IMG/VR virus record: IMGVR_UViG_3300030419_007306
Span: 5,207-69,206 of that record
DNA length: 64,000 nucleotides
Strand: one strand, 5' to 3'
Origin: a virus
Every line of letters starts with the position of its first letter. The stretch's first letter is position 1. A program made the position numbers and the translations under genes. The notes beneath the pieces were generated by a model. It worked only from the letters and a program-made list of their open reading frames with translations, was not told the DNA's origin and ran no database searches. Positions 2 to 29,185 of the stretch are shown here, one piece after another.

Positions 2-100
2 CGAGCGATATTGTCTCCTTTTGTTGGCAATACTTTCGACCCAAGGTCTTTGGGCGGGGGTACAGCCCGTGGTGGCAAACAACCATATAGAGAATCATAA
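2..100 (+). CDS. 3' end of upstream virion gene (partial; possible head-tail adaptor)
   Basis: Open frame from position 2 (RAILSPFVGNTFDPRSLGG...YRES*) ending in TAA that overlaps the next ATG (TAATG). Function inferred from position only. Confidence 0.55.
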   Translation, partial: RAILSPFVGNTFDPRSLGGGTARGGKQPYRES

Positions 101-6508: not shown

Positions 6509-6882
6509 TGAGTACCTACGAAGAACAGAAAAAATTAAGAGAACAAGTAAAAAAAAGAAATGAGGAGAAATATAGAGAAAGCTCTAAAAAACGCCTCATA
6601 AAAAATGTGGAGAAAAAGTTTAAGACCACTATGATTGGGTCTCTTGCATGTTTTGAAAAATATTTTGGGGACTTATGGGGTCATGATAAAGACGAACTTA
6701 CCGAAGAACAATTGAGATTTAAAGAACTTTGGGAACAAGCTAGAACAGAAATATTGAATAATGGAAATAGCCAGCTTAGGATAGCTCAAGAGGAAATTGC
6801 TCAGTATAGTATGACGTGGAATAGGTATCACATAGATTTTCTAGTGACACCACAGGATAACAAGGAGAATAAAGATGAGTAA
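6508..6882 (+). CDS. Hypothetical protein
   Basis: 124-aa ORF translationally coupled on both sides. Confidence 0.6.
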   Translation: MSTYEEQKKLREQVKKRNEEKYRESSKKRLIKNVEKKFKTTMIGSLACFEKYFGDLWGHDKDELTEEQLRFKELWEQARTEILNNGNSQLRIAQEEIAQYSMTWNRYHIDFLVTPQDNKENKDE

Positions 6883-7765
6883 AGATAAAGACACTTTTGA
6901 ATTTGAAGTTGAAGAAAAAGGAAAGCCTGTCAAGAGAGCCTTTAAAATTTCAGAGGCAACTCTTCAGCAGCAAAATGAGGCTACCAAGGTTTATAATAGA
7001 ACATTTAGAGATGCTCTAGAGTCTGGTGCTTTATTGAGAAATAAACTAGAAGACTACATGAGAAATCAAGGGATGTGGAACGATGAGAAACAAGCAGACC
7101 TAGAACTTCTCCAAAAAGAAATTTTAGACAAAGAAAAACAACTGGCCAAAGGCGGCATACGGCTTTCTGTTGCAAAAGATATTGCCATAGAAATGGCAGA
7201 TAAAAGAACGGAAATTAGAAGTATGCTTATGGAGAGAAATAGTCTTGACGGCTCTACGGCGGAGGGACAGGCTGATAATGCCAAATTTGATTATTTAGTA
7301 TCGGCTACTTTGGTGTATAATGATAGTAATAAGCCTTATTTTAAAGACTTAGCAGACTATAGAAATAAAAATACTGACCCTGTTGCTATTGAGGCTGCTA
7401 GAAAACTAGCACAAAAAATGTATGGCTTAGATTCGAATCATGAGCACAACTTGGCTGAAAATAAGTTTTTGCGAGAATTTGAGTTTGTTGACGAAGAATT
7501 AAGACTTGTCAATAAACAAGGTAAATTGATTGACCGAGAAGGTAACTTAATAAATGAAGACGGTCGTTATATTGACGAGAAAGGCAACCTTATAGATTTA
7601 GACGGAAATCCCGTCACTGAAGAAGGTGAATATAAATTTGACAGAAAGCCGTTTTTAGATGATGACGGCAAAGAGATTAAAGCGGAATCTGAACCTGAGC
7701 CACAAGAAGAGGTAAAGGCTGAAGGTTCTGAAGCCGAGGCTGAAGCTGAAGCTACAAGCGATTAA
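6875..7765 (+). CDS. Putative tail assembly chaperone with IDxxG repeats and acidic tail
   Basis: Directly upstream of TMP; repeats VNKQGKL/IDREGNL/INEDGRY/IDEKGNL/IDLDGNP. Confidence 0.5.
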   Translation: MSKDKDTFEFEVEEKGKPVKRAFKISEATLQQQNEATKVYNRTFRDALESGALLRNKLEDYMRNQGMWNDEKQADLELLQKEILDKEKQLAKGGIRLSVAKDIAIEMADKRTEIRSMLMERNSLDGSTAEGQADNAKFDYLVSATLVYNDSNKPYFKDLADYRNKNTDPVAIEAARKLAQKMYGLDSNHEHNLAENKFLREFEFVDEELRLVNKQGKLIDREGNLINEDGRYIDEKGNLIDLDGNPVTEEGEYKFDRKPFLDDDGKEIKAESEPEPQEEVKAEGSEAEAEAEATSD

Positions 7766-7842: not shown

Positions 7843-10800
7843 ATGGCAAAGCCATTTAATTTAACAGCACAATTAAATGTAACTGGACCCGTAGGGCTTA
7901 AGCCTGTAATTAGTTCTATTAAAAAACAGCTTACGGGAATTACTACCAATGTAAATGTTAAGATAGACCCCAAAGCAAGTCGAGGAGTAAAAAATCTCAA
8001 TAGAGATGTTGTTCTATTAAACAAAGCTCTTCGCACTGCCTCTAGTCACGCATCTTCTCTTTCTGCGTCAATGAGTAAATTGGGAAGTTCTCTTAAGACT
8101 GTACAAAGCTCTTCTGCTAAAAGTGCTAAAGGGTTATCCTCCGTTGGCAAGAGCGCACAACAGACCGGAAAAGAACTGGCCGTTGCCAAAACCGAAATGG
8201 AAGAATTCGGTAGAATTTCTGGGCTGGCTCTGAGAAGATATGCTGGCTTTACTGTCGCGACTACTTTGACCTTCGGTTTCGTGCGGGCTGTTAGCACCGC
8301 CGTTGGTGAAGCTCTTAAGTTTGAAAGAGAGCTTATAAAAATAGGTCAGGTGACTGGTAAAACCATGGGTGGTTTGAAAAGTCTTACGGACGAAGTTGGA
8401 AGGCTGGCTACTACATGGGGTGTTGCTTCTAGCGAGCTATTAGAAGTTTCTAGAATTCTTGCCCAAACTGGGTTGAATGCCAAAGAAGTTAAAACCGCAT
8501 TAAGTGCTTTGGCAAAATCCAATCTTGCTCCTACCTTTAAGGATATGAAAAGCACAGCTGAGGGCGCTATTGCTGCCATGTCTCAATTTGGTTTGAGGGC
8601 AAAAGATTTAGATGCAGTACTTGGTTCTTTGAATGCTGTTGCTGGTAAGTTTGCCGTTGAGTCTGGCGATTTGATTTCAGTTATTCGAAGAACCGGTGGT
8701 GTGTTTAAGGCTGCTGCTGGTGATATAGGAGCGCCCAAGCGACAACTAAATGAACTAGCTGCTATTTTTACGTCGGTCAGGTCTACTACTCGTGAGAGCG
8801 CAGAAAGTATTGCTACTGGTCTTAGAACTATTTTTACTCGTATACAAAGACCAAGAAGTATTCAATTTCTGAGAGAGCTTGGGGTAGAGGTGCAAGGACT
8901 TGGCGGCAAGTTTGTTGGTCCTTACGAAGCTTTAAATAGACTTAGCAAAGCCCTTAAAACCTTAGACCCAAGAGACGTTCGATTCGCAAAAATTGTTGAA
9001 GAGCTTGGTGGATTTAGACAGGTAGGTAAATTAATTCCTGCTATTCAACAGTTTGGAAAAGCCCAGCAAGTGTTAAAGGTCGCAATGGCAGGGCAAGATA
9101 GCTTGGCTAAAGATGCAGCAGAAGCTCAAAAATCCTTGTTGGTTCAGGCTACTAAGGTTAGGGAGGAGTTCAATAAGCTTTTTCGCACGGTAGCTCAAAG
9201 CACATCCTTCCGTGTTGTTGCTAAATCTGTTTTGCAGTTATCTAGTTCACTTATAAAATTAGCAGAATCTGTTGCTCCAGTTTTGCCTTTTCTAACTTTA
9301 ATAGGTGGAATAAAAGGAGCTGGTCTGGCAAGACAGTTCGGGTCAGGTTTCTTAGGGGGGATTGGAAAAGCAGGAGGAGCTGGTGCTGTTGGCAAGGGAA
9401 TGGCAGGTGCTGTAACTGGGCAGGCCAGTCAAGCACAAGGAAAAGCTGCCGTTGCAAATCAGGCTCTTGCCAATGCTCAAAAAGCTCAAACTACTGCTAC
9501 TCTGGCAAATACTAAAGCATTGGCTGCTTTATCTGTTGCTGTCAATCGTATGGCCAACCGACCGATGGGACCAATAGGAGGGGGGAGAAGAGGCTTTGCT
9601 GCTGGCGGCTTAGTTCCCGGCCAAGGTAATCGTGATACCGTTCCTGCTAACTTGACTCCTGGCGAATTTGTTATTAGAAAATCGTCTGTAGCCCAACTTG
9701 GAGTAGATAACTTAAGACGTATGAATAAGATGGCGTCTGGTGGTAGGGTATCAAGAGCGAGACGCGGTTATAATATAAGAACGCCCTTTGGTCCCTTAAA
9801 CGCCACAAAAAAAGAGATGGCTAGAGCACTCGGTGTTTCCCCATCGTCCTTGGCGGAAATGAAGTCAGGAAGAGGCCATACTACCTCTGAGATGACTTGG
9901 GAGCAAGCGCAAGCGAAGTATGTGCAACACAAGGCGGACCAAGGAAATGCAGAAGCACTGGCACTCAAGAAAAAGCAGGCAGGAGCAAAAAAACAAGCAG
10001 AAAGAACAGGGGTTTCGAGAGCCATTAATCAGGGTGTTCTTAGAATTGGGCAGGAGGGTGTGCCTCTAGTGGGAATGCTTTCTGTTAGACCCGAAAAGGG
10101 AGCGTCAGACATAAAAAGCAAGACCTATTCGTATAATAATGAAGAGGCAATAATAAGAGTATTGCGGACAGCGAATATGGCGGGCAACGAAGAACAAGTC
10201 AGCAAAATAAGTGCTAAAGGCGGCGTACAAATTCCTATGTCTGTGGGCTATATTGACCCAAAGAAAAGACAGAAGTTCGACACTGTAACTAAGGAAGGAA
10301 TTGCAAGTGCGATAGGTAACGTGATGGATATTTTTAGCGTCAGTAAAGGCTCTAAAACACTGGGCAAATCCGACCGAGGCGTCTCCAGAGCGATGAAACA
10401 AATAGGTATTAAAGATATTCAAGGCAAAACGTTTGAAGCTGCGACTGCTGGATTGACCGGAATTTTTGGCACGGATGATAAGGCTAGATTTGATTTTAAT
10501 ATGACGAGCGCCGTCGACATCCAAAAGGACAGAATGCGAGAGCTGTTTGGAGAGAATACAGCAGTAACTGAACGATTTCTTGATGCGAAGATGACTGCTT
10601 CTAGTACTAATGTAAGTAGTATAAAAGACAAGACTACTTCTGCCAAGGTATTGCCTCATCTTAAAGACCAAATCACGGCCTTTAATAAAGGTGGTTCTGT
10701 TGACTCGGTTCCCGCCCTTCTTACTCCCGGTGAATTTGTCATCAATAAAGGCGCTGCTTCAAAAATAGGTTTAGGAAACCTTGTTAAAATGAATCAGGGA

Positions 10801-13800
10801 CAAATGCCCGCCTTCCATGGTGGCGGCTTTGTGGGCAGAATGAGGGATAGAATAAGCGGATTTGGAGCAGGAATGAAGGAGAGGATGGGGAAAGCAGGAG
10901 CTGGTCAAATTGGAATGGGTATGATGTTTGCGGGACCAATGGCTCAGCAAGCAATAGGAACACGTAGCGCGAGTGCGTCAGGGATTGGAGGTGCCCTTGG
11001 CGGTGCTGCTATGGCGGGCGGTACTGCAGGAATGTTGGGGCTCGGACCCTTGGGCGTTGGCATTGCTGCGGCTACAGGAGCGATTTCGGGGCTCGCGTCT
11101 GGAATAGCCGACTTTACCACAAATCTCAACGCAGATGCTATTAAGTTAGCTTCTGAAAAATTAGAAAAAGCTTTTGACAACTTAAGAAGCGGAGCCAAGG
11201 GAGCAGACGTACAATATGCCCGAGCCTCCAGAGCCGCTGCTAGAGCCGCTCAGGACTCGATGGACCATGCACTGGGACTTGGCCAATTTGCTAAGAGAGT
11301 ACAGGGTCTTGGTATGGTTCTTACTCCTATTCTGGAACTTGGTGGTGGCGGCTTTTCAAACAGGGGTGATATGAGGACGGTGCACGCAGAGATGGGCTTC
11401 TTAGGGGTTATGTCACGACTGGTCAGCAGCCCACAAGAGAACGCTAAACAGGTGGAAAAAGCCTATATGCAAATAGGTAGAAGACAGGCTGAGCAAAATC
11501 AAGCAGCAGGTCAGGTGGCATTAGAAGCGTTTGCAGAACGATTTCAAAAAGCAGACATAAGTACGCTTGGAACAGGAACAGCTAGAACCCGAGCTAATAA
11601 GTTAGCGGAAGATGAGAGAAGTGACCTAATAAATATAGCACATGCGGACGCAGAAGCTTCAGCACGATTAGCACAAATTCATAAAAAGAACATCTCTGAG
11701 GTTGAAAAGAGGGCTAAAATCGAGCAAGTTTATCTTGAAGTTTATCAAAAAACAGTTGCTCCTCTTGAGAAGAGAATCGAGTTAGAAAGAGAGTTGGATG
11801 GCATAGCGAGACGTGCGACAAAAGCATTTGATATGATGAATAATCGCTTTGAAACAAGCGTACAAATGATAAATCGTATTGTTGCGGCCATGGGCAACTG
11901 GGAACAGCGACTCAGTAGTAATGTTCGCGCAGCGCAGGGCGCTCCCACAATATCATCTCCTCAAAATGCTCTAACCAACATAGTACAAAATCCTCGGGCG
12001 TTTTCTCTAAGAGAGTCTAGGAATGCCATGAGGAATATGGATAGGCAGGTTGGCGGCACACCACAATTCAGAGAAGCCGCATTGGTTCGACAGATGGGCA
12101 TGCAATTAGAGAGAAGCTTACCTCGCATCATGAAAATAGCAGAGAGTAGGCCTGTTGGGGAACAAACGGAATTTGTTGAAAAGGCAATTAGAAGAATGGG
12201 GGGAACAGGAGGAGGGACCCAGCAAAAATTCTTTAATAATATGGCCGATGTCCTAGCAAGAGAATTGGCTACTGGAGGAAATCGTCAAGGGAAAATGACT
12301 ATACGGTCTCTGGGAGAGGACCCGAGTCAAATTAAAAAAATACAAGGTGCCGGAGAAGCTTTTGAGAAAGCACAAAAGACTGTTCTCGCCTATGCAAAAG
12401 CACTTGACAAAGCAGCGGCAATAGCAGACAAGCTGGCAAATCAACATGTGCAATTAATGTTGGCAGCCAGAGAAGCACAAAGAGATGTTGCGAGAATAGG
12501 GTTTGAAAGAATCGCAGCCTTTGCACAGGTGGCAGGAAGAGAACTAACGACCAGAGAACAGATGGCTCCCTTTGATGCTGAGATTAGAAGCCTTAGCGGA
12601 AAAGGTGTCTTTGGTACTACTACCACAGACCCTCATCAGCTTGCACAAAGAAGGCAAGCTATGGAAGCAGAGAGAAGGGCAATAGAAGACAGACGGAACG
12701 CAATTCGTCGAGGCGGAGGAGAAGTACCGAAATCTCTTAATAATAGGTACAAGCTGCTTACTGCTTCTATTAGAGAAAACCATATGGCTCTAAAGAAACT
12801 TGCAACAGATACCAGTAGAGTTAGTGCAATCATGAACAAGCTTGCCAAGATTCAAGAAAAGAGAACGAAGTCTCGTGACATCTTGAAAGGCTTGTTGACC
12901 GCTGACCCTGAGCAATTGGCCGAAATGAGAAGGGGGCAGGCGATAGTTGGTGGTGTCATGCGTGGAGGAAATATATCTCAGCTTTCTCCGCAAGACAGAG
13001 CTTTGTTCTTCCAAACCTTACAACAGATGAAAGAGATAGCACAAGTTAGCGGAGATACTAAGCAAGGACAACTGATACTTAGAAAACTCGACAAGCTTGA
13101 AGCTGATGCGATTAGAAGGGCGTTTGGAGGAGCGGCTGGTGGAAGAGGCGGCAATTTCATGATAAGAAACTTGCTAAGATATGCCGGAACCACACGAGGA
13201 GGAACCGATATAGAAAAATCGCTAGGTGGAAAATTATCAAAAGTCTTTGGAGAAAGAAAAGATGCCGCACAAGCACTGGCTGGCTTAGCGGGTGATATTG
13301 CTAGAGAGTTTGGGGACGAGTCGGCTAAACAATATATACTAATGAGACAAGCTTTTATAGCTGGCTTTAAGTCTATAAATAACAATGGTTTCTTTATCAA
13401 AGAAGTCAAGAAACTGCCTACTCCTGTAGCCGTGGTCTTCCCTGCCGCTGGCAGAGGACCTCTTGGTGGCGGAGCAGGCGGTGGTGGCGGATTCGGTGGC
13501 GGTGGTGCAGGCGGTGGCGGCGCAGGCGGCGGTTTTGGTCCTCCTCCTGCACCCTTTGCAGCGGATGCCTTTGCGGACAAAAGATGGGGCCCTTCTGGTC
13601 TAGGTGGTAGATTTGGGAATGAGTGGGCCATGCGAGGCAAGGAGATGCGTACAAGAATGGGAGATGATTGGATAAAAGCCGCTGGGAGACGGGCTGGTTC
13701 TCGTAAGGTAATAGATATATGGAACGATATGCTCAATATGGATTCGCGGAAGAGAATAGCGGAAGCCGTATTGAAAATGGCTAAGGATGAAAAGGCTCCG

Positions 13801-16800
13801 TGGGTGAAGGATACCCGAGAGCGAAAGGATATGATTGCTCGCTATGATGCATTCAAAGATTTTGGTGAACCGCATTGGTTGAAGGCTAATCGTGGCGCTG
13901 TAGTTCCTGGCACTGGAAACAGCGATACTGTTCCTGCTATGTTGACGCCAGGTGAGTTTGTTGTTAATGCCGCTGCCAGTCAAGCTAATCTTGGTTTGCT
14001 TCATGACATTAATACTCATGGTGCAGTTCAGAGATTTAACTCAGGCGGGGAGGTTGCGCCAGGTAGGGTTCAAAGGTTTGCTGGTTTCTTTAGGAATCGA
14101 AGAGTGAAGTCTCGCAAGCCTCGCAGCACCACTGGCTGGAAAATGGGAGAAGGTGTGCCTGACCGCCCCGGTACAAAAACAGCGGCTCAGATTGACCAAG
14201 AAGCCTATGCGGGCCCCAAGAAACCTAAACTTCATGAAGTTGACCCTAAGAAGCCCTTGGCTGTTGACACTACGAGGTCAGAAGCGGAAGTTCAAAGAGC
14301 AGCCTTTGGGTCGGATAAAAAGTCGTTGACAGAACTGGCGAAAGACCAAGGGAAACCAACTGCTCAAGAAGCAAAGTTTGACGAGCTGGCCAAGACGGGA
14401 GAATCGCAGCCCGATGCAAAAATTCGGACAAAAGGGAGACAGGAGATTGGAGGGAAGGGAGATGCGCCGGGGTCAACAAGAGGAGCAGTACAGAGGAGTC
14501 AGAGAGTCATAGCGTCCCAAGCTGAAATGCTAGAGGAAATAAATAGGGCTAAGGTACAGATTGAACAACATAAAAGAGTGGGAGGCAAAAAACGTACTTT
14601 AAAGAATCTACAAACAGAGCTAGCAGCACTAGAAGCAGATTACAATGCTCGCTACGGAAAGGCTACGGTTCCATTGGAACAAGGAACAGCTCCCGCAGGC
14701 ACAGAAGGAAAGGGGGCTTTAACTCCTGAGGAGACGAGGAGTGGCAGAGCGAAGGTTGCGGCTGACGCTGGGGCTACTAAGACGCCCGATGTCACTCGTC
14801 AAAGAATCACGGCTGACCAGCCGAAACCTGCTGCGAAACCTGCTCCTGCTCGGCAAGTGGTGATGCAATTAGAAGATGGTACGACTATAACTAAGCAAGG
14901 AAGTATTGGTCCGAAAGGCTGGCATCCCAAAACCGTTGAAATGTTTCCTGACGAAGTTGCTAGATATAACAAAATCCAAAGGGCATTTCCTGCTCGTTTG
15001 AATTCTGAATGGGCAAAACTATGGTTCGGGCACGTTGGAAATGACGCAGCCAAGTTAGATTGGCTGGGTGCTCAATCAACCCAAGAATGGTTGAGACAAT
15101 CCGAAGTTCAGGCTCGCCTTAAAAGGACCGACCCTCTAGCAGCCCGAGGTCAGGGTAAATCTCCGGCGGCACAACGGGGTCATCATGAAAAGCCGACGAA
15201 AAGACCCCCTAAGTCAGGCCCTCTGGGTGAAAGAGTACGTCCAGGCGACACGTTTCCAGACGAATATAACAGATTTTCCGACGAAACGGCTATAGACAGA
15301 CAGAGAAGACTTAATCAGGCTGAGCTTGACCGTAAGGTTGCAGAAGGAGTAGACAAACAGCAAGCAATAGAGGATGCTAAACATAAATATGGGGTCGCTA
15401 AAAGACAAGCCGATATAGATGAGCTTACGAAGACTGCCGGTAAACGAATGGGCAACAGCGGAGTTTATGACCTAGGAAAACTAGAGATGCCACAACCTGA
15501 TTATCGGGGTTTTGGGGCTAGTAATGATGCTAGGATACGCGGCTACATAGAAAATCTTGATTCAACGCAGTCGATTGAAGCTAGATATAAGCAAGTTACT
15601 GATACACTCTTTGATAAGAGAGCAAGGCTAAGTGACCCCAGTACGAGTCGCCTACCACCGGATGATTTAGTTCGCGCACAGCAGCAGATGGATGACTTAG
15701 TAAAGATGGAAAGACGCCTCTCGGCTAAACTGGACCTTGCTAGGGCGCGGGATAAATTAGTGTCGGCATATGGAGGAGGAACAACACCCCCAAACAAGAC
15801 GACGCGCGCCGTGACCGGAAAGACGCTGAGAAGCCCAGATTCGATGTTGAAGACCCTAAAAGACCTTGAGGGTCAGCGACATGTTCTTGAGTCGGTGGGA
15901 GACCAAAAAGGTGTTGCCGCAATACAAGAGAGGATAAGAGGCGTAGAGAAAAGCCTGAGCAAACATCCGGCTAACTCTGTACTGAGACATGGACAGAAAT
16001 ATGATATGGTTCTTGGTACTGCTGACGACTTAGGTCTACCCGAAACACGCGCGAAGGCCCTGTTCGATAGGGTCGAGGCCAGAGCAAAATTAAATAACTT
16101 GCTTGATAATGAAGTTAAAAAAACAAAAGTTAACCCAAATAAGGTAAGGCGTAAGATTGTAGCAGATGTCAATAGGGGCGTCAGGCCATCGGAAGGACTG
16201 GAATTGGTTAAACAAGAACCATTTAGAACAGGACCCGACCTAGGTAATATGGAAGCTGATTTAGATAGGATAGCAAAGAACACTAAGCCAACAACTGATT
16301 CCGTAGAACAGTACACCAAGAAACTTTTTGCCGAAGCAAGTGACAGTGCAGCAGAAGCGGCCCGTCAAAAAGAATTTGCTGCAATACTTGAAGAAGCAGG
16401 GCCTAGCAAAAGCGTTCATGCAAGGTCGCAGTTGGCAAAGAATCGCATGAACAACGCGTTGGGAGCAGGCGACACCTCCATGAGAGGTAGAGTTTTGGAG
16501 GCGGTGGAGGCTGCTAGGTTTGAAAATGCTAAGGCGTTGGCTGCCAAAAACGATGCTCTTCGAAGAATTACTTCCATAGAAAATAGTGGTGCATATCCAC
16601 GAAGCCATCCGGTTTATCAAGGTCTATTGGAAGAATATAGAGTAGCATCACAAAACCTTGATTCTACCAGAATGCAGCTGACACAAGACCTTAATTATAG
16701 TGGCACAAAGTTTTTTGGACAAGGATATGGAGCAGGGGCAGATTTGTCTACGGGTCTAACTAAAAGAACTAACTGGCTACCAGACCAAAAAGTAACGGAT

Positions 16801-19800
16801 ATTGAAACTGGTTATACAAGAGGAAAGGGTGGGATGAGGCTGGCAGACCAAGGAGCAGGTAGTATGGCCGCTAAGCAGAAAGCGAGAATACGGGCTTCAA
16901 AAGCAGCGGTGAAATCCACCACTAAAGCAGCTTTAGCCAAGAGTCTGCCAGCACTGGCCATCGGAGCGGATTTATGGATGGCTTATGATGCGATAAGGTC
17001 AGGAGACAAAAAATATCAGGCTTATGCTGCGGGTCGTATTACTGCCGACATTGCAACAAGAGGTGTTTATTCTGGTGTGGATTTGACTTCAACTCTTATT
17101 CAGAAGTTGCAGAAAACACTTAGACCTGACTTAGACGACGGTCGTTTCGACCGCCGCGACGAGTATGATAATATTGTTGGAATTTTCCAGAGTTCATGGA
17201 AGGCGTGGAACATTAGTAGAGATGCTAACGATATGGCGCAGTCAAAAAATATAATTGAACTAGCAGCCCAGCAAATAGCCGAGAGTCGCGGTTATAAACC
17301 AGAAAAAACGTCTGCATGGCAAGATAAAGTTAGAGGAACAAATTGGGCAAATATTTTAACAGGAAGAAAACAGGGTACTGGAGGAGATGATGGAAGACGA
17401 GCACACATAGCAGACCTCCAAAGACAAGTCAAAGAGACAAAGGGCCTTGCAACGGGGGAAACGCAGCAAAAAAAGGCTCATATAAATCGTTTAAATGAAA
17501 GAATTAACGCAGCACAGCAGGCAGCGGGCATAGGATTTGATGACCCAAATAAATTCTTCGAACAATATTTAAGAATGAATGTGGGAGGTACTGAATTAGA
17601 AAAGCTTGGCATGAGCTTACCATCCACTTATGGCATGAGGACTGACAAGTTAGCAGAAATTTGGGACCAATCGAATGGCTGGGCAGGAGAATGGGCATAC
17701 AAGAGTGAGGTTTATAAAGCATTACAAAGTCAAGTTAAGGGAATCAACTATGCAGGACCAGACCAGAGCAAGACGGCTCGCAACAGAGCTTTGCTTTTTT
17801 CTGGAATTTCTGGAAGACACGGAACGGGTTACACCAAAACAGACATAGCAAAAATTAACGATAAATTTGATGCAATTTCTGTAAGATGGGGTGCTCAAAA
17901 AAAGGGTCGTGAGTACATTGCTCTCCAAAAAGAAAAATCAAAAGCGAGGCATCAGCAAGAAGTTGATAGAAGAAAGGCTATTGCCGATGAGCATGCGGCG
18001 GATTATGGGTTATTACCAGGCGACCCCAAGGCCGAGGGTATCGACTTGATGGCTCGTGTTAGTCAAGGGCTCTATGATTATGTTAGTAGTGGAGGAAAAG
18101 GTGGCCCACAGGCCCTTTTGCATGGACTGAACCGTCCATTGAAGAGAGACCTCGTTTTAGATTATCGCAGTAGGTATCCTAATGACGATATAAGAGGCCC
18201 AGAAAGAGCCATTCATCCATTCCAAGATTTTTATGGTCCAGAAGGACTATTTCCTTTTCCTCTTCAAGAGTTCGCCTATGGAGAGGGTATTACGAAGGAG
18301 ATGCAAGAACTTCTTGGTCCTTATTATGCCGGTGCCGGTAAATTGACATTTGCTCCACAGGAGGCTGATTTTGGAGGTGATATAAGACACAAAGAGGATA
18401 GAGAGGCTGTTAGCAAGGAAATGTTTGGGTCGATGTTGCGAACAGCAGACAAAAGGATGGGAACGGCCTATGTAGAAAAAGCCAGAGCAGCTTCCGGAGC
18501 GAAGGCTCTTTTTGCTGCTTTGGAATCTGCCTTAGGACTTGACCGGAAGGCTGGACTGGACGCACAACGGAGTGAATTTCATTCAGAGGAAGGTCAACAT
18601 GAGTTCAAGACTGGAATGAAAGCTCTTGCAAGCAAATTTGGTTTGTGGGGAAGCGCTGGAACAATGGAGGCTCTTGGTACAGATATAATACCGGTTGGGA
18701 GATGGGCCTATGGATTCCCAAATTTTGATAAAGACATACACGCTGGACAGCATCTTGGCGACGAAAATTTGAAGAAAGTGCTACTGGGCAACTTCCCAGG
18801 TCGTATCGATGTGGGGAGCTACAAAGAGACGCTTCTTTCCATTATAAAAAATATGAACAAACCAACATGGGCTGACAAGGTAAAAATTGGATTTCCTCCC
18901 CTGTCAGAAGTACAGGCGATGATGGCTCAAGGAGACAAAAATTATCAAGACGATAGCTCCTTTGGTTATAAACCGTCTCAGTTTGGTCATAGGTCTTGGA
19001 GTGCTTTGGGTATAAGTGCGTGGACTGACCCGGTCGGCTATCATGGTAGCTTTAGCCAGGATATATCAAAGTTTGCAGAGGACTATGATGGCAAGAAAGC
19101 TGTAAAGAAAAATGCTGGAGGAAGAATTCCCGGCACTGGTACTAGTGATACTGTTCCCGCTATGTTAACTCCGGGCGAGTTTGTCGTAAACGCAGCAGCT
19201 AGTCAAGCAAACCTAGGACTTCTTCAGAGTATTAATACTCATGGTGCTACTCAGAGATTTGCAATGGGAGGTCAGGCTGCCTATAAAGTAAACGGACTGT
19301 GGGTGGCTCCAATAGGTAGTAAACTAACGCCTGCTCAGATTAAAGAGAATAGATTCAATAGGGGTAGAGGCAGAAGACCAAAAACTGAAAAGGAGAAAAG
19401 GGCTCTTCGAGAAGAATTAGAAGAACGACAGGAGAGAATAAGGGACAGGAGACAGCGCGCCGAGAGAGGCATAACAGGGGCAAGTCTTATAGACATTCGT
19501 GCCAGCCAAAGAACGCCCGCGGAGAGAAGAAGAAGAACAGCACTAGAAAGAGCAAGGCGTAAACAAAATGAAAGAATCGCGGACAGAAACTTGGCGGCGG
19601 ATGATGCAGCCGCAAAAAGAAAGAAAGAGTTTGAAACTCCCGCAGCAGGAGAGGTTATAAGCGCAGACTTGATGCTCCGAGCACAACAATTGCTTGGATA
19701 TCTTCAAGACACACCTATTCCAAAACAAATTTCTCTTGGTGATGTTGCGGGCACGACAGCTCAGCAAGTCCAAAAACTTCAAGAACATAACTTTTTGTCG

Positions 19801-20667
19801 GGAGAAGCGGTAAGCACATGGGCAAAAACAAATAAGGATGTCGTAGACCTAACTTCAAAATATGTAGAAGGTAAGCTTGCGGCAAAAGCCACTGCAGCTA
19901 AAAATAAGTATTTTGAAAATCTAGAAAAAGCTTACTACAAAGGTGTTAAGCGACAGCTGCAAATAAACTTAGACCGACAACATCCGGGAACCGAAGAGAA
20001 TCCAGATTTATCGCCCATTACGAGAACCACCCGAACAGGGACACAAAATAGTTTAGAGCAAATGAGGAGTAGGAGCAGAACTTATGGAAGCTATTCCAGA
20101 AGATACTCTACTGGCGGCGGTGTAGATAGTGTTCCAGCTATGTTAACTCCCGGTGAGTTTGTAGTAAATGCTGAAGCAGCACAAAGAAATCTTGGTTTAC
20201 TTCATGCTATAAATAATACTCCAGTACAAAAGTTTGCAAAAGGCGGGCCGGTACGAAGATATCGAGACGGAGGAAGAGAAGGAAGAGGAGGGTTGTTTGG
20301 TGGAAACCGTGAGCTTGCTACTGCCATAACCACTTTCAATGCAACGACACCAACTCTGGCTGCTGCTATGAATAATTTTAAGTCTTCTGAATTGGCTGCT
20401 GCTATGAATAGTTTAGCCGCTAGCAGCTCAAAGCTTTATGACGCAGCTGTCAAACTTGCAGACGCCCTTAGTCAAATGCCCAATATTCCAGAGCAAATAA
20501 GCGGTGCTTTTGCGGCCAGTGTAAATCTCTCGAACGAAGCGGGCTTTGGCGAAACTCTGGCGAAGGCAATGGGACGCGAACTGGGAGACACAATATCAGG
20601 CGAAGTATCAAAACACACTCAGAAAAGAAATGTAGACGGCACACCATCTGGGCCAGTTACGTCATAG
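7843..20667 (+). CDS. Giant tail tape measure protein (4274 aa) with repeated DTVPAxLTPGEFV cassettes
   Basis: TP901-type TMP core near the N-terminus (FERELIKIGQVTG...LAQTG...IATGLRTIFTRI), Ala/Gly-rich helical and hydrophobic segments, canonical position after tube and chaperone genes. Confidence 0.9.
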   Translation: MAKPFNLTAQLNVTGPVGLKPVISSIKKQLTGITTNVNVKIDPKASRGVKNLNRDVVLLNKALRTASSHASSLSASMSKLGSSLKTVQSSSAKSAKGLSSVGKSAQQTGKELAVAKTEMEEFGRISGLALRRYAGFTVATTLTFGFVRAVSTAVGEALKFERELIKIGQVTGKTMGGLKSLTDEVGRLATTWGVASSELLEVSRILAQTGLNAKEVKTALSALAKSNLAPTFKDMKSTAEGAIAAMSQFGLRAKDLDAVLGSLNAVAGKFAVESGDLISVIRRTGGVFKAAAGDIGAPKRQLNELAAIFTSVRSTTRESAESIATGLRTIFTRIQRPRSIQFLRELGVEVQGLGGKFVGPYEALNRLSKALKTLDPRDVRFAKIVEELGGFRQVGKLIPAIQQFGKAQQVLKVAMAGQDSLAKDAAEAQKSLLVQATKVREEFNKLFRTVAQSTSFRVVAKSVLQLSSSLIKLAESVAPVLPFLTLIGGIKGAGLARQFGSGFLGGIGKAGGAGAVGKGMAGAVTGQASQAQGKAAVANQALANAQKAQTTATLANTKALAALSVAVNRMANRPMGPIGGGRRGFAAGGLVPGQGNRDTVPANLTPGEFVIRKSSVAQLGVDNLRRMNKMASGGRVSRARRGYNIRTPFGPLNATKKEMARALGVSPSSLAEMKSGRGHTTSEMTWEQAQAKYVQHKADQGNAEALALKKKQAGAKKQAERTGVSRAINQGVLRIGQEGVPLVGMLSVRPEKGASDIKSKTYSYNNEEAIIRVLRTANMAGNEEQVSKISAKGGVQIPMSVGYIDPKKRQKFDTVTKEGIASAIGNVMDIFSVSKGSKTLGKSDRGVSRAMKQIGIKDIQGKTFEAATAGLTGIFGTDDKARFDFNMTSAVDIQKDRMRELFGENTAVTERFLDAKMTASSTNVSSIKDKTTSAKVLPHLKDQITAFNKGGSVDSVPALLTPGEFVINKGAASKIGLGNLVKMNQGQMPAFHGGGFVGRMRDRISGFGAGMKERMGKAGAGQIGMGMMFAGPMAQQAIGTRSASASGIGGALGGAAMAGGTAGMLGLGPLGVGIAAATGAISGLASGIADFTTNLNADAIKLASEKLEKAFDNLRSGAKGADVQYARASRAAARAAQDSMDHALGLGQFAKRVQGLGMVLTPILELGGGGFSNRGDMRTVHAEMGFLGVMSRLVSSPQENAKQVEKAYMQIGRRQAEQNQAAGQVALEAFAERFQKADISTLGTGTARTRANKLAEDERSDLINIAHADAEASARLAQIHKKNISEVEKRAKIEQVYLEVYQKTVAPLEKRIELERELDGIARRATKAFDMMNNRFETSVQMINRIVAAMGNWEQRLSSNVRAAQGAPTISSPQNALTNIVQNPRAFSLRESRNAMRNMDRQVGGTPQFREAALVRQMGMQLERSLPRIMKIAESRPVGEQTEFVEKAIRRMGGTGGGTQQKFFNNMADVLARELATGGNRQGKMTIRSLGEDPSQIKKIQGAGEAFEKAQKTVLAYAKALDKAAAIADKLANQHVQLMLAAREAQRDVARIGFERIAAFAQVAGRELTTREQMAPFDAEIRSLSGKGVFGTTTTDPHQLAQRRQAMEAERRAIEDRRNAIRRGGGEVPKSLNNRYKLLTASIRENHMALKKLATDTSRVSAIMNKLAKIQEKRTKSRDILKGLLTADPEQLAEMRRGQAIVGGVMRGGNISQLSPQDRALFFQTLQQMKEIAQVSGDTKQGQLILRKLDKLEADAIRRAFGGAAGGRGGNFMIRNLLRYAGTTRGGTDIEKSLGGKLSKVFGERKDAAQALAGLAGDIAREFGDESAKQYILMRQAFIAGFKSINNNGFFIKEVKKLPTPVAVVFPAAGRGPLGGGAGGGGGFGGGGAGGGGAGGGFGPPPAPFAADAFADKRWGPSGLGGRFGNEWAMRGKEMRTRMGDDWIKAAGRRAGSRKVIDIWNDMLNMDSRKRIAEAVLKMAKDEKAPWVKDTRERKDMIARYDAFKDFGEPHWLKANRGAVVPGTGNSDTVPAMLTPGEFVVNAAASQANLGLLHDINTHGAVQRFNSGGEVAPGRVQRFAGFFRNRRVKSRKPRSTTGWKMGEGVPDRPGTKTAAQIDQEAYAGPKKPKLHEVDPKKPLAVDTTRSEAEVQRAAFGSDKKSLTELAKDQGKPTAQEAKFDELAKTGESQPDAKIRTKGRQEIGGKGDAPGSTRGAVQRSQRVIASQAEMLEEINRAKVQIEQHKRVGGKKRTLKNLQTELAALEADYNARYGKATVPLEQGTAPAGTEGKGALTPEETRSGRAKVAADAGATKTPDVTRQRITADQPKPAAKPAPARQVVMQLEDGTTITKQGSIGPKGWHPKTVEMFPDEVARYNKIQRAFPARLNSEWAKLWFGHVGNDAAKLDWLGAQSTQEWLRQSEVQARLKRTDPLAARGQGKSPAAQRGHHEKPTKRPPKSGPLGERVRPGDTFPDEYNRFSDETAIDRQRRLNQAELDRKVAEGVDKQQAIEDAKHKYGVAKRQADIDELTKTAGKRMGNSGVYDLGKLEMPQPDYRGFGASNDARIRGYIENLDSTQSIEARYKQVTDTLFDKRARLSDPSTSRLPPDDLVRAQQQMDDLVKMERRLSAKLDLARARDKLVSAYGGGTTPPNKTTRAVTGKTLRSPDSMLKTLKDLEGQRHVLESVGDQKGVAAIQERIRGVEKSLSKHPANSVLRHGQKYDMVLGTADDLGLPETRAKALFDRVEARAKLNNLLDNEVKKTKVNPNKVRRKIVADVNRGVRPSEGLELVKQEPFRTGPDLGNMEADLDRIAKNTKPTTDSVEQYTKKLFAEASDSAAEAARQKEFAAILEEAGPSKSVHARSQLAKNRMNNALGAGDTSMRGRVLEAVEAARFENAKALAAKNDALRRITSIENSGAYPRSHPVYQGLLEEYRVASQNLDSTRMQLTQDLNYSGTKFFGQGYGAGADLSTGLTKRTNWLPDQKVTDIETGYTRGKGGMRLADQGAGSMAAKQKARIRASKAAVKSTTKAALAKSLPALAIGADLWMAYDAIRSGDKKYQAYAAGRITADIATRGVYSGVDLTSTLIQKLQKTLRPDLDDGRFDRRDEYDNIVGIFQSSWKAWNISRDANDMAQSKNIIELAAQQIAESRGYKPEKTSAWQDKVRGTNWANILTGRKQGTGGDDGRRAHIADLQRQVKETKGLATGETQQKKAHINRLNERINAAQQAAGIGFDDPNKFFEQYLRMNVGGTELEKLGMSLPSTYGMRTDKLAEIWDQSNGWAGEWAYKSEVYKALQSQVKGINYAGPDQSKTARNRALLFSGISGRHGTGYTKTDIAKINDKFDAISVRWGAQKKGREYIALQKEKSKARHQQEVDRRKAIADEHAADYGLLPGDPKAEGIDLMARVSQGLYDYVSSGGKGGPQALLHGLNRPLKRDLVLDYRSRYPNDDIRGPERAIHPFQDFYGPEGLFPFPLQEFAYGEGITKEMQELLGPYYAGAGKLTFAPQEADFGGDIRHKEDREAVSKEMFGSMLRTADKRMGTAYVEKARAASGAKALFAALESALGLDRKAGLDAQRSEFHSEEGQHEFKTGMKALASKFGLWGSAGTMEALGTDIIPVGRWAYGFPNFDKDIHAGQHLGDENLKKVLLGNFPGRIDVGSYKETLLSIIKNMNKPTWADKVKIGFPPLSEVQAMMAQGDKNYQDDSSFGYKPSQFGHRSWSALGISAWTDPVGYHGSFSQDISKFAEDYDGKKAVKKNAGGRIPGTGTSDTVPAMLTPGEFVVNAAASQANLGLLQSINTHGATQRFAMGGQAAYKVNGLWVAPIGSKLTPAQIKENRFNRGRGRRPKTEKEKRALREELEERQERIRDRRQRAERGITGASLIDIRASQRTPAERRRRTALERARRKQNERIADRNLAADDAAAKRKKEFETPAAGEVISADLMLRAQQLLGYLQDTPIPKQISLGDVAGTTAQQVQKLQEHNFLSGEAVSTWAKTNKDVVDLTSKYVEGKLAAKATAAKNKYFENLEKAYYKGVKRQLQINLDRQHPGTEENPDLSPITRTTRTGTQNSLEQMRSRSRTYGSYSRRYSTGGGVDSVPAMLTPGEFVVNAEAAQRNLGLLHAINNTPVQKFAKGGPVRRYRDGGREGRGGLFGGNRELATAITTFNATTPTLAAAMNNFKSSELAAAMNSLAASSSKLYDAAVKLADALSQMPNIPEQISGAFAASVNLSNEAGFGETLAKAMGRELGDTISGEVSKHTQKRNVDGTPSGPVTS
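9595..9744 (+). repeat. TMP cassette copy 1 (FAAGG...DTVPANLTPGEFVI...MASGG)
   Basis: Protein-level repeat read from the translation. Confidence 0.85.
10681..10827 (+). repeat. TMP cassette copy 2 (FNKGGSVDSVPALLTPGEFVI...FHGGG)
   Basis: Protein-level repeat. Confidence 0.85.
13885..14049 (+). repeat. TMP cassette copy 3 (PGTGNSDTVPAMLTPGEFVVNAAASQANLGLL...FNSGG)
   Basis: Protein-level repeat, nearly identical to copy 4. Confidence 0.9.
19111..19272 (+). repeat. TMP cassette copy 4 (NAGGRIPGTGTSDTVPAMLTPGEFVVNAAASQANLGLL...FAMGG)
   Basis: Protein-level repeat. Confidence 0.9.
20104..20247 (+). repeat. TMP cassette copy 5 (YSTGGGVDSVPAMLTPGEFVVN...FAKGG)
   Basis: Protein-level repeat. Confidence 0.9.
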
Positions 20668-20676
20668 GAGCATAAA

Positions 20677-22275
20677 ATGGGCGGGTTTTTTAACGCATCA
20701 GATAAAAATTTAGAAAATAATACCACGATGATGTATGGGGATTATACATTTTCGCCGGTTCCTATTATTAGCATCAATAAAGAAATACAGTCAGCTGGAG
20801 ATGGCCAAGCTCTAGGAACTTTATTTGCTCTTTCTCTTGAAGGTTCTCTCGTTCCCGGTGCTACTGGTGTAAATGGAATAGCTAACATAACAGAAGAACA
20901 AGATAGACTAATGGCAGCTTTCGCTGCTTCAGGACAAGGTTATGAATTTAAAGTAAGCTGTGGCGACTCTGATGTCATTAAATGTTTTCCTAGAATTAAA
21001 TCTTTAAACTTTGAAGCTGGCCCTTGGGTAGACGTATCTAAATATACTATTGAACTGGAATATGATAGAGACTTTGCTGCCGATATAGGTGCTCCTTGGA
21101 ACGATGAGCATAAATCGGGCTCCGGCAGTCCGGAACCTCTAATTTCTTCTGCAGAAGAATCTTGGAGTATAGAGCCAACGGAACAGAACTTCTTTCATTT
21201 TGAATTGGCCCAGAGCGGAAAGCCAACGTTTATAGAAACGTGTCCTCCAAGCTTTTCAGTAACGCATAATATATCTGCTGTTGGAAAGCCTCTTATAGTT
21301 AGCGGAGTACTGGCAGATGGCGGATACGCTTGGCAGCAAGCAAGCGGCTATGTTATCCCTAGACTAGGTTTTGACAATGAGAAAGTCACTAAGAACGGAG
21401 CTATTTGCTTTGACCAGAATGGGGCTCTCGTTGTTTCTAACCATGCTAGAACAGTAAATTTTGGTGAGCTAGACGGAACATATTCTGTTGTTGAGAGTTG
21501 GACTGTTTATAGTAGCGGTATATGGTCTTCTGGAATTAATGCCTTGGGTGCAAATGATTCATGGGATGTTGGGGTTGAATCTAGCCTTGAAAGCAGTCTA
21601 ACAACTGTAAATGTTCAAGGCACCATAACTGGACAAGCATCAGGTCTATTTTGTAGCGATAATTCGGCGGGTGGTAGTGACCCTCCAATATATGAAATAG
21701 TTAAAAGTAAATATGCAAATGCTAAGGAATACTTGGATAATATTAGTGACGACATATTTTGGGCTAGAGCACATCATTTTGCTAGTGGCGTTTCTACAAG
21801 AGGCGTTAACCCGATTCCCATTGCAACGTCAATTGGACACAACCCCTCACAGGGAGTTATAACCTATAATTATAGATATGACGATAGACCTAGCGTATGT
21901 CTAACTGGAGCTAGAACAACTGAGATATCCATGTCCGACACAAACGCAACAGATGTTTTTGCAGAACTTACTGTTCTTGGTCGTGCTCCGGGCCCTGTCA
22001 TGCAAAGCATAGGTACAGTTACATCAAAGAAAAGAGAGGTGACTTTAGACGCCACGATGGAAGTAAATAGCATAATATGCGATTGCCCCAGTGCTACCGG
22101 ACAAATGCCAAGCATCGAAGCTGAAACTATTTTGTTGACATTTAGACCTGACAATTGTGGAGACCCCTCACTAGAGCTTACGATATTTAAACACCTTGAT
22201 TCTGAAAGCTGGAATCCAACAACAGGAAAATACGCAAGACAAATGGGATGGACTTATACTACATGTGGTTCATAG
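20677..22275 (+). CDS. Putative distal tail/baseplate protein
   Basis: First gene after TMP; beta-rich and Ser/Thr-rich. Confidence 0.55.
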   Translation: MGGFFNASDKNLENNTTMMYGDYTFSPVPIISINKEIQSAGDGQALGTLFALSLEGSLVPGATGVNGIANITEEQDRLMAAFAASGQGYEFKVSCGDSDVIKCFPRIKSLNFEAGPWVDVSKYTIELEYDRDFAADIGAPWNDEHKSGSGSPEPLISSAEESWSIEPTEQNFFHFELAQSGKPTFIETCPPSFSVTHNISAVGKPLIVSGVLADGGYAWQQASGYVIPRLGFDNEKVTKNGAICFDQNGALVVSNHARTVNFGELDGTYSVVESWTVYSSGIWSSGINALGANDSWDVGVESSLESSLTTVNVQGTITGQASGLFCSDNSAGGSDPPIYEIVKSKYANAKEYLDNISDDIFWARAHHFASGVSTRGVNPIPIATSIGHNPSQGVITYNYRYDDRPSVCLTGARTTEISMSDTNATDVFAELTVLGRAPGPVMQSIGTVTSKKREVTLDATMEVNSIICDCPSATGQMPSIEAETILLTFRPDNCGDPSLELTIFKHLDSESWNPTTGKYARQMGWTYTTCGS

Positions 22276-22283
22276 GATAGAAA

Positions 22284-25200
22284 ATGATATTCGGACATTC
22301 ACCATCGGCAAAACCAATATCGGTTCCCCACTCTTTTGCTTCAAATGGCAAACCGATAAGCGCTACTACTGTTCCAGCAGGACAGAGGGAGCTGCCAGGC
22401 AATAACGGAGCAGGAGACGGAGGGGTCGCCTCTGCCGTAGAACTAAACTATGGTTCTAACAATACTGGCCGAGGAAGATATTTTGGAACCTTAAACCCTA
22501 ACGTAGCTACAACCAGCGCTGTTTTATGCGACGGAGACGATACGTTTACTCAGACGGCGTTTCTAGGGGCTAGCATTATGGATTTTTCCGTAACGTTGGG
22601 ATACGGAGAACAAAGTAGTTCCTTAACGGTTAAGCTGGTAGAAGATTTATGCGAAGGTCATTCTAGAATATATTATCATGGTCATGCAGATTTAAAGGTC
22701 GGTAATTTCTCTACTCTACGAGCAGCTACCCGAACAACTGCCGATTACTTTTTACCCCCAGCTCCCGGCTCTCCTGTTTATTTTAGAATGGGAAGATTTG
22801 AATTTTCGGGCTTACTTCAAAGCTGGACTAAGACAAATTCAACAGGTGGCTATCCAACCTATACGGTAAATATTCAAGACCCCAGAGAACTTTTGGCTGG
22901 GGTTAGTCTTATTATTGGAGAAGAAACTACAATTCCTTCTATCTCAAATATATATAATGTTTTTGGTACGATGGAACAGTACGGAAATGCTTGCGCTGTT
23001 TCTCCCGTAGGAGGCTTTGGTGGGGCAAACGTAAATGGCGAAGGAATGCCTTGGAACAAAATTTTAACTGGACTTCATCTTCTTCAGGCTCAGGGTAAAT
23101 ATATTAGTTTCGCTGGGGCCACCTACGTTTTAGATTTGACTGATTTGCCTGCGGTTCCCGACGATTTTAGAATTGGCGGGGCTACTGTTACATTATCAGA
23201 TGCGATAAGCAAGGTGTGTGAAGATTCTGGGCGAGATTATTTTGTTGACTTAATTCCAACACCATTATCTCAAGGCGGGTTTACGCCTCTGTTTTATAGT
23301 AATGTTTTAAATATATTAAAAATTAGAACTATTGATAGAACAGCAGTTCCGAGTCTTAATACAATAGCAGCATTTGTTGAAACAACAGACAACTTGGTAA
23401 TGGAAAGTTCTCGTGGCCGTGAGCTTAGGAACGAAATTACCAATGCTATGATTATTGGCGCAAGCAAACAAGATATCTATGAGTGTGAGTGTGCAACCAG
23501 TATTTCAGAAGACCGAGACGGAGGAAGAGCTAGCGAATGGCTTGACGGCATTATTCCCTTCTGGGGCGCGAAAAGACCAGATAGTCATGAGATAATTCTA
23601 ACCCGCAAAAAGAAACCTGTGCATGGCGCAGCGGGAGACCCTAAAATTCTGGGCATATGGGCTCCATTTGAAGACGTTCAATTCCAATTAGAAAAGAAGC
23701 TGTTAGAAGATGGAAGCCGATTGAGAAGAGACCCTGTAGATGGAGAAACTCTTGTTTATGATTTAGATGAAGATGAACTGAGGGCAGCTCTTTCATCGCA
23801 GCAGGACTGGCAGTTCTGGATAACGTCTCAAAAAGACCATCCTGTCAACAGAACATACTTTCCCAAGAGAGATAAAGCTGGAAATATCATTGTCCCCAGA
23901 CGCGGTAACGTTGGAGGCATGTCCAACGGTGTTTTTAATGGTTTTTGGGATTTATTTGAAGCCATATTAGGAGGAACCGGAACTCCCAACCCAGCTGATT
24001 TGATGGAATTTAATTCAAATGTCTCTAAACTAGCTTCTGAGAAAATTTCGACAGGCCAAGAGCAAAGAGACCTAGATAAGATTTTTAGATGGGTCCAAAC
24101 ATATGCCAATAGATATGGAAGAGAATGGCTTGTTCCTTTATATGGAAATTTATGTTGGCAATTGGATACAGACGACCCATATAAAAAGAAGTACTCTGTT
24201 GAGCCAATTGATTCAGGATGGCCAGAATCATCGGGCAGTGAGGTTATTGGCTTAAGCTTGCCTATAGCTCGAATAATATCTGGAGACGAGACTGGAAAAG
24301 TAGCACCTTTTTTGAGATTTCTTATAAAATCCAAGGATAGTGATTTTGAGCCTTCAATGGCAGGGGCTGGGTTGGCCGGAGGAACTAAGACAGATTTTAC
24401 AGAGTTGTCTCCTGAAGAATATTATATTTCAGAGAGCGCTCTTTCAGGATGGGTAAAAGCCTCTGTAGATAAAAATATTTATTTTTTAAAGGAAGCTTGG
24501 GGCACCGAAGACTACGGTCCCCATGCTCTATTGCAAATGAGCGCCTCTATTAAGGAGCTGCAAGATACGGCGGCAGGAGGTACATATAATTCGGCTCTTG
24601 CGGGTTTTAAGAAAATATTTGAAGAATTGGTTAACGACCCCGTGGGGCCTGGTGGGAATAGTTTGAGAGCCATGTTTCCGGGACGGGTTGATGATTTATT
24701 TAAAGCCATAATGAATGAGCCAAATTCAAGAATGCTTAATTTTGGAATGGAACATTCAACTCTGTCTCCTGCTGCTGGTGCGGTGCCACTACTAAATAAT
24801 ATCTTAAACTATGGTCCGTGGCAATCAAGTCCACCTGGCGCTGATGGTAAAACGGCAACAGAAGTAATAGATGGACTTGCTCCATGGGAATACGGTGGCT
24901 TTGATTTAATGAATACAGCTGGTCAAAACTTGGCCAATCAAAGAGTTACCCATATGCAACAAGGAGAGATGGGAAGTATAAAAGTTCCTGGCTTACCTAA
25001 TAATGTAAGAGTTGGTTTTGAGTTAAATGATATAGGAGGAAGCAAGGCTTTAATTGCTACTGACAGAAGTATGAGCAGCGCTGTTCTGATTGGAGAAGGA
25101 ACGCTAGAAGATACCAACCAAAGTTATTACTATGTTGCCGCCGGAGGTTTGGATGGCGCCGGAGGTCCAAATATTACTGCCATTAATGTATCAGTAGGAG

Positions 25201-27605: not shown

Positions 27606-27609
27606 AAAA

Positions 27610-29030: not shown

Positions 29031-29185
29031 TACTTTATATATTAGGCGGAATTTATTTACTAACCTCGCTCTTTCTTATCATTAGATGGGCGATAAAAAG
29101 AGTTCGAAGAAATAGAATATTAAAAGAGATAGAAGAGGTTGAAAAACAAGACCCGTTTTTTGATAAGTTTTACCCACACTTTTAA
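29027..29185 (+). CDS. Small single-TM membrane protein
   Basis: ATGA coupling at 29027; MILYILGGIYLLTSLFLIIRW transmembrane helix. Confidence 0.55.
   Translation: MILYILGGIYLLTSLFLIIRWAIKRVRRNRILKEIEEVEKQDPFFDKFYPHF

Follow-up and report, generated by a model that had tools for sequence, protein, structure and literature searches.

Tape measure proteins (TMPs) reach the host envelope ahead of all other phage proteins. They fill the tail lumen and leave before the DNA, and a TMP can carry an enzyme which works inside the host. The TMPs of phages lambda and T5, gpH and pb2, respectively, are cut inside the tail, and the resulting fragments remain in the virion. For lambda, the 2025 Ur-lambda paper estimates that gpH* corresponds to approximately residues 1 to 710 and gpHC to approximately residues 690 to 853, placing the cut in a Gly-rich region; why, where, and by what gpH is cut has been an open question for more than 40 years. 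T5 pb2 is cut after R1127, yielding pb2* and the enzymatic pb2C, and release of this C-terminal piece has been proposed, while the authors of the JBD30 study predict a “hook” at residues 1022 to 1066 of gp46, followed by a speculative cut. Here, we describe a giant TMP of 4,274 amino acids (aa), designated P0001, which is encoded on a 64,000-nucleotide (nt) stretch (referred to as the window) of the IMG/VR virus record IMGVR_UViG_3300030419_007306 and which harbors five copies of a module resembling one present once in lambda gpH.

The source is a single viral record of 69,206 bp, of which the window represents bases 5207 to 69206. P0001 comprises a conserved backbone (blocks A, C, and F) and variable bays (blocks B, D, and E), with a gpH-type module at every junction, and we consider it probable that the bays are carried along at infection, the modules acting as joints.

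Architecture of P0001 and nature of its modules

The components of P0001, with module limits representing hidden Markov model (HMM) envelopes, and the open reading frames (ORFs) flanking its gene are listed below in window positions.

7843..20667, + strand: TMP gene (P0001), ATG start, 4274 aa; its relative P0002 is collinear over the full length
7843..9588, + strand (aa 1-582): block A, N-terminal TMP core with PF10145, a hydrophobic segment, and then a Gly/Ala-rich stretch
9589-9777, + strand (aa 583-645): module 1, “first” subtype, GEFVIRK
9778..10644, + strand (aa 646-934): block B, variable bay 1, about 289-304 aa
10645-10857, + strand (aa 935-1005): module 2, “second” subtype, GEFVINK
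10858..13854, + strand (aa 1006-2004): block C, backbone of about 1000 aa, mostly helix-prone and charged
13855-14082, + strand (aa 2005-2080): module 3, “later” subtype, GEFVVNA
14083..19077, + strand (aa 2081-3745): block D, lineage-specific bay, about 1665-1679 aa
19078-19305, + strand (aa 3746-3821): module 4, “later” subtype, with module 3 as its nearest paralogue
19306..20076, + strand (aa 3822-4078): block E, basic variable bay, about 257-270 aa
20077-20283, + strand (aa 4079-4147): module 5, terminal module, “later” subtype
20284..20664, + strand (aa 4148-4274): block F, C-terminal tail, 127 aa
5459-6508, 6508-6882, and 6875-7765, + strand: three ORFs upstream of the TMP gene, assigned by position to tail assembly chaperones
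20677..27605, + strand: two ORFs, of 532 aa and 1773 aa, assigned by position only to the distal tail/hub

The product of the ORF at 7843-20667 is, judged from its sequence and setting, a genuine siphophage TMP, since PF10145 (PhageMin_Tail, TP901-type) matches aa 185-389 (nt 8395-9009) with 81.6 bits against a gathering cut-off of 33.2, since the TMP PHROGs 4211, 1533, 1272, and 4704 are matched, and since the gene lies between the ORFs in chaperone and hub position. Among the former, the ORF at 5459-6508 exhibits a weak match to the tail assembly chaperone phrog_344 (E 2e-6), Pfam support being absent for all three, and neither downstream ORF matches a PHROG or Pfam family. The TMP frame extends over 12.8 kb without a stop, and P0001 contains no cysteine. 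Across window positions 8001-20000, the TMP gene has a G+C content of 44-49%, as opposed to 34-43% for the neighboring structural genes and the remainder of the window; either its richness in Gly and Ala or a history of its own may account for the difference.

The modules are 55-75 aa in length and conform to the consensus GG...D-[TS]-V-P-A-x-L-T-P-G-E-F-V...L..N...GG, with 16 columns invariant across the five copies and GG motifs flanking all of them; within them, TPGEFV is found as an exact string at aa 605, 961, 2035, 3776, and 4102 (nt 9655, 10723, 13945, 19168, and 20146). An HMM built from 470 modules of 115 relatives, from which P0001 to P0005 were excluded, recovered exactly these five modules in P0001, with independent E-values (iE) of 7e-21 to 1e-26, and none in the other 676 of the 677 six-frame ORFs of the 69,206-bp record. 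Module 3 has no match to any Pfam family at E up to 1.

The same HMM matches lambda gpH at residues 719-793 of 853 aa (iE 2.3e-11), and hhalign aligns the five copies with gpH residues 734-785 (probability 62.5%, E 7e-5). By these matches, the module belongs to the type found at the C terminus of lambda gpH and is not private to P0001. A profile of the five copies matches gp16, the TMP of mycobacteriophage Douge, twice (973-1027 and 1421-1461; E 5e-9), and tblastn with a single copy identified 380 places in 299 cultured-phage records, usually one or two per TMP, the hosts being mostly members of Mycobacterium, Gordonia, Arthrobacter, Burkholderia, and Nodularia. The genes underlying the 60 tblastn matches listed are annotated as TMP (52), “endolysin” (7), or “hypothetical protein” (1). 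All seven “endolysin” cases are TMP genes of Mycobacterium phages (e.g., Shandong1, KiSi, and Unicorn), the label probably stemming from embedded cell-wall hydrolase domains. The gp16 protein of Gordonia phage Bunnybear carries modules at 947-1015, 1262-1319 (weak), 1625-1679, and 1965-2025, and the hook of JBD30 gp46 (residues 1022-1066) gives a weak single-copy match (E 0.96); no module was detected in T5 pb2 or in P23-45 gp96 (best iE 0.8). When block A and module 1 were used together as the tblastn query, the only cultured-phage matches were SPbeta-like TMPs (24 records, 23-24% identity).

Modules 3 and 4 share 46 of 75 aligned residues, and different synonymous codons are used at 24 of these 46. 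Over a 48-codon core their nucleotide identity is 73.6%, with nonsynonymous (dN) and synonymous (dS) divergence of 0.15 and 1.58, respectively; they are, therefore, evidently old duplicates kept alike at the protein level and do not represent a recent repeat. The five modules as a set are old position-specific paralogues maintained by purifying selection. Subtypes, assigned by anchored consensus and residue counts, follow position throughout the family, a pattern to which the P0001 modules conform: “RK” follows GEFVI in 75/120 first modules versus 1/116 second and 3/257 later modules, second modules are mostly GEFVINK (62/116), and 182/257 later modules have GEFVVN followed by a residue other than K. 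This points to specialized joints on a fixed backbone, A-module-bay-module-C-module-...-F, rather than a string of generic signals; because the subtypes are position specific, the role of a generic, interchangeable signal fits them poorly.

Much of the foregoing had been anticipated in an earlier note on this DNA, which described a 4,274-aa TMP divided by five cassettes into blocks of very different character, proposed purifying selection on copies 3 and 4, and remarked that the motif occurs in other TMPs. The identity of the protein, the computed lengths and composition of blocks A to F, the codon-level comparison, and the cultured-phage and gpH matches all agree with it, the module envelopes to within ~30 nt.

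The match to lambda gpH bears on the possibility that P0001 is a true polyprotein, in which every module would represent a cleavage signal and about six pieces would arise from the TMP within the assembled tail, each then being ejected in its turn as an effector of its own. The gpH module starts at about residue 719, and estimates place the gpH*/gpHC cut at about 690-720, within the Gly-rich region, a correspondence which is suggestive and no more. Such a reading also accommodates the GG motifs at all modules, the proposed release of the enzymatic C-terminal piece of pb2, and the cut which the JBD30 authors speculate to occur directly after the module-equivalent hook. However, no cleavage has been mapped at any module, and of the only two TMPs for which cutting has been shown, pb2 is without a module; the position-specific variation of the modules likewise speaks against it. 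Furthermore, no natural gene split at a module was found among 120 shorter relatives, those below 1,000 aa ending raggedly or in junk and thus looking truncated. Pfam scans of the whole of P0001 and of its blocks returned no peptidase family, and no protease was identified in the record, for which CheckV gives a completeness of 46%. The phage genome may be approximately twice the size of the record, and genes such as that for a tail protease could lie beyond it. A proteomics paper on Cluster O mycobacteriophages contained nothing relevant to TMP cleavage. We regard the polyprotein reading as doubtful. It also seems unlikely to us that the tape is cut at each module into separate, pre-loaded proteins which are fired in a fixed order, C-terminal piece first and before the DNA, with the bays as payload slots reloaded by recombination in a very large aquatic family; were this so, blocks B, D, and E, all of them orphans, would constitute novel proteins injected for host takeover or anti-defense.

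Exchange of the bays among relatives

A full-length search identified 137 giant relatives, of which 120 (2,381-7,279 aa) were listed and form the basis of the family counts given here; another 1,405 relatives fall below 2,350 aa in length, and those among them that look complete measure about 1,850-2,350 aa and possess 2-4 modules. All 120 giant proteins possess between one and eight modules, with four or five in 68. Beyond four close relatives, the giant proteins have only the first 9-16% of P0001, i.e., block A and module 1, in common. BLAST conservation among 119 relatives is correspondingly uneven: block A is conserved in 119, the modules in 113-118, block C in 61 (weakly), and blocks B, F, D, and E in 5, 3, 2, and 1, respectively. 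The homologues of block D are that of P0002 and a weak partial match in P0005, block E has its sole homologue in P0002, and block F is homologous in P0002, P0003, and P0004, the last block of most relatives measuring about 100-260 aa.

The segments between modules were catalogued across the family. Clustering of 593 such blocks yielded 257 families, 180 of them singletons, and 111 architectures among the 120 proteins. Slot 0 (block A) is occupied by a single block family in 117/120 proteins, as opposed to 64 families in slot 1, 49 in slot 2 (one with 46 members), and 68 in slot 3. Where block A is at least 80% identical between two proteins, the string of block families nonetheless differs in 48 of 57 pairs. 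In P0087 and P0094, block A is 100% identical and slot 1 has been replaced; P0028 carries a whole extra block which is absent from P0053, P0059, and P0078; and P0003 and P0004 share 96% identity in block A, 24% in block B, and 81-100% further on, with the divergence extending into the first third of block C. Global alignment of P0001 with P0003 gives identities of 81% (A), 68% (B), 31% (C), 16% (D), 23% (E), and 42% (F), from which the modules stand out as islands of 58-87%. Bays are gained, lost, and replaced among the relatives, often at modules. Six loci on related viral contigs were found, the best with 61% identity, a divergence too great for recombination at the modules to be tested at the DNA level, and no near-identical DNA was present among 50,697 cultured-phage records.

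That so long an ORF might be an assembly chimera or a product of fused genes was considered, the source being an uncultured contig of 46% completeness. This candidate explanation was rejected as extremely improbable, given that P0002, whose source is a different one, aligns collinearly throughout (4,280 aa) and possesses the same set of five modules, that the exact P0001 protein has 6 member sequences, that the 12.8-kb frame is open throughout, and that the architecture is common to hundreds of relatives.

The chief rival to a backbone with bays is a pure ruler, according to which all 4274 residues set tail length (about 640 nm if, as we assume, each residue accounts for 1.5 Å), blocks B, D, and E are drifting, recombining filler, and the modules are structural repeats in contact with chaperone, tube, or hub, without any cargo. 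The continuum of family lengths, from about 1,850 to 7,279 aa, is as expected for a ruler, and the position-specific module subtypes are also accommodated by it; so is the 5,002-residue TMP of P23-45, which accompanies a tail that its paper terms extraordinarily long. Replacement of bays by unrelated sequence of another length between TMPs whose A blocks are 96-100% identical is, however, unexpected if length alone matters. On this evidence and that of the bay contents given below, we consider the pure ruler improbable.

Bay contents and the question of cargo

The backbone blocks possess features shared across the family. Block A includes a hydrophobic segment at aa 470-495 (nt 9250-9327), and in 101/120 family proteins the 170 aa preceding module 1 include a hydrophobic 19-mer. 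At the start of block C lies a hydrophobic stretch rich in Gly (aa 1063-1088, nt 11029-11106); of 901 hydrophobic peaks in the family proteins, 415 and 293 cluster in slots 0 and 2, respectively. Near the end of block C, a poly-Gly run at aa about 1860-1895 (window about 13400-13530) is much longer in the closest relative, P0002, and appears to behave as an expandable tract. Block F would, by position, be the counterpart of the C-terminal helix region through which lambda gpHC, JBD30 gp46, and Douge gp16 are bound to the hub.

The bays of P0001, on the other hand, are orphan sequences in which no domain is recognizable; their homologues are confined to the lineage, no fold was predicted with confidence, and they give no functional clue. 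Just after module 1, block B contains an Xre-type helix-turn-helix (HTH)-like stretch at aa 655-684 (nt 9805-9894), which gives a sub-threshold match to Pfam HTH_3 (E 0.0023; 18.4 bits against a cut-off of 23); only in this part of the AlphaFold2 (AF2) model of block B does the predicted local distance difference test (pLDDT) score reach about 58-73, and the closest relatives, P0002 and P0003, hold unrelated sequence at this position. HTH families are listed in the precomputed Pfam column for P0240, a shorter relative. Block E is strongly basic (K+R 20.4%, net charge +20). The first half of block D is highly charged and of low complexity, with few order-promoting residues and more Pro, and its second half contains more aromatic residues and is better conserved. 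Identity to P0002 is about 65-66% over block D as a whole and 79% over the stretch spanning the second half and module 4, which hints that this half is a constrained structure and suggests, contrary to a pure ruler, a constraint beyond length. The low-complexity first half of block D, together with the all-helix/coil model described below and the lack of a detected enzyme domain in P0001, is what such a ruler would predict.

Certain relatives, in contrast, carry bona fide enzyme domains in their bays, for which a pure ruler makes no provision. In P0007, a domain of the ADP-ribosyltransferase exoenzyme type (PF03496; 26.8 bits against a cut-off of 23.4) occupies aa 1303-1513, where it is flanked by modules 1 and 2 of that protein; the same family is given for P0117 in the precomputed Pfam column. 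In gp16 of the cultured phage Bunnybear, an SLT transglycosylase at 1543-1633 runs into the module at 1625-1679.

Because a TMP leaves the tail ahead of the DNA, whatever occupies a bay would be carried to the host envelope or cell at infection. We propose that the bays represent a place where the phage lineage tries out ejected sequences, these being enzymes in some relatives and orphan sequences in P0001, and that the modules may function as conserved joints for TMP assembly, docking, or processing. This joint role would be the same as that of the single module beside the gpH*/gpHC cut of lambda and at the hook predicted for JBD30 gp46; such a scheme allows for a cut at each module and does not depend on one.

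Several points weigh against this proposal. Recognized non-TMP domains are rare, being present in 11/120 relatives in the precomputed Pfam column and, by direct Pfam scan, in 1/12 relatives (an EF-hand). A per-block scan of P0001 found no Pfam family at cut-off in blocks B to F, and the ESM Atlas gave no usable match for block B or the C-terminal half of block D. Block B has no free-standing homologue among proteins of 167-532 aa, and a search with aa 2555-3754 of block D against 1.84 billion representatives recovered only its own cluster and one fragment (P0241). AF2 models of module 1-block B-module 2 and of the C-terminal part of block D with module 4 are of low confidence (mean pLDDT 36.9 and 33.5), the alignments for these bays containing four and two sequences, respectively; the block D model consists of helices and coil only, which also fits a plain ruler segment. 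For lambda, the Ur-lambda paper gives the gpH cut site and protease as unknown, and the TMP residues built in available structures (Douge 1658-1699, the last 33 of JBD30, and lambda 818-849) leave the module outside. No JAB-type peptidase (PF14464) was found in the 46%-complete record. The JAB-type domain of lambda gpK might act after GG, which we take as a lead only. Lastly, among 24 related pairs, whose overlap keeps any p-value from being a true probability, 87 of 222 identity breakpoints (39%, versus 18% expected) lie within 50 aa of a module and 135 lie elsewhere, and the enrichment is partly expected, as conserved module islands create breakpoints at their own edges.

For this last reason, “cassette-delimited” is a good first description and no strict rule. 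The earlier note took the modules for putative cleavage or translocation signals and possible recombination hotspots, and the latter suggestion is borne out insofar as segments are exchanged (111 architectures among 120 proteins and 48/57 differing pairs), with only 39% of breakpoints falling at modules. Its swappable effector domains find a counterpart in the enzymes of P0007 and Bunnybear and gain no support from the bays of P0001, lacking as these do a known domain, an outside homologue, or a confident fold. The analogy it drew with polymorphic toxins was not upheld: the variable parts of P0001 are internal, the C-terminal block F is conserved in P0002, P0003, and P0004, the next genes are large ORFs in structural positions, and no toxin family was found.

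The element near the estimated lambda gpH cut is, by these comparisons, a deeply conserved module; more than 1,500 uncultured TMPs form a family in which a single protein can have as many as eight copies of it. The lambda cleavage question thereby becomes testable, since mutagenesis and N-terminomics can be directed at a defined element. Provided that the bays are functional, the tails of the P0001 family would constitute a general, reloadable route of protein delivery, and the orphan bay families (180 singletons among 257) a reservoir of early-acting phage proteins. If the bays are only filler, the modules would mark sites at which TMPs tolerate large insertions, which would be useful for engineering.

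Neighboring genes and comparison with described systems

Elsewhere in the window, a 302-aa ORF at 100-1008 (+ strand) encodes a concanavalin A-like lectin domain (Laminin_G_3, E 3.4e-23), and its product may be a carbohydrate-binding virion decoration or fiber protein. A 282-aa ORF at 27544-28392 (+ strand) shares about 60 nt with the end of the 1773-aa ORF and has a match (E 5.7e-10) to a PHROG which bears the annotation glucosyltransferase. Two adjacent paralogous ORFs of 271 and 243 aa at 29182-30722 (− strand) match DUF6071 (E 1e-5 and 2e-6) and lie at about 29-30 kb, where both gene orientation and GC skew switch direction.

No description of repeated gpH-type modules fencing exchangeable TMP segments was found in the literature searched, from which most subscription journals and supplements were absent. 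Among systems which deliver large, modular proteins with exchangeable functional domains to a target cell, as P0001 may do, are the polyvalent proteins of Iyer et al. (2017) and the Sle1-type effectors of contractile injection systems. The former contain embedded metallopeptidases for release, and that paper makes 0 mentions of TMPs; P0001 exhibits neither several effector domains (blocks B to F being below Pfam cut-offs) nor an embedded metallopeptidase. The Sle1-type TMP-related effectors belong to contractile systems, and no repeated gpH-type module is described for them in the abstract of their paper.

Among TMPs, gp96 of Thermus phage P23-45 resembles P0001 in being giant (5,002 aa), and it carries a virion RNA polymerase which acts inside the host. 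It differs in having no gpH-type module and in the N-terminal location of its enzyme, outside any inter-repeat bay, and family-wide exchange of inserts is not known for it; P0001, for its part, begins directly with block A, which is present in 119/119 relatives, and has no extra N-terminal polymerase region of the gp96 kind. T5 pb2, through its cut after R1127, and JBD30 gp46, through its weak module match at the predicted hook, are also comparable, although each offers a single site only, pb2 is without a detectable module, and the cut in JBD30 is speculative.

Among TMPs of cultured phages, the nearest ones with several modules in one chain, as in P0001, are Bunnybear gp16 and Douge gp16. 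Both are shorter than P0001 and have an N-terminal core unrelated to block A, and Bunnybear gp16 has as its cargo a cell-wall enzyme, a type which has long been familiar from TMPs. The closest known object overall is lambda gpH: at 853 aa, it has one module in place of five and no bays, yet its module is the same one and precedes a short hub-binding tail at the C terminus, an arrangement which is comparable to that of module 5 and block F at the end of P0001.

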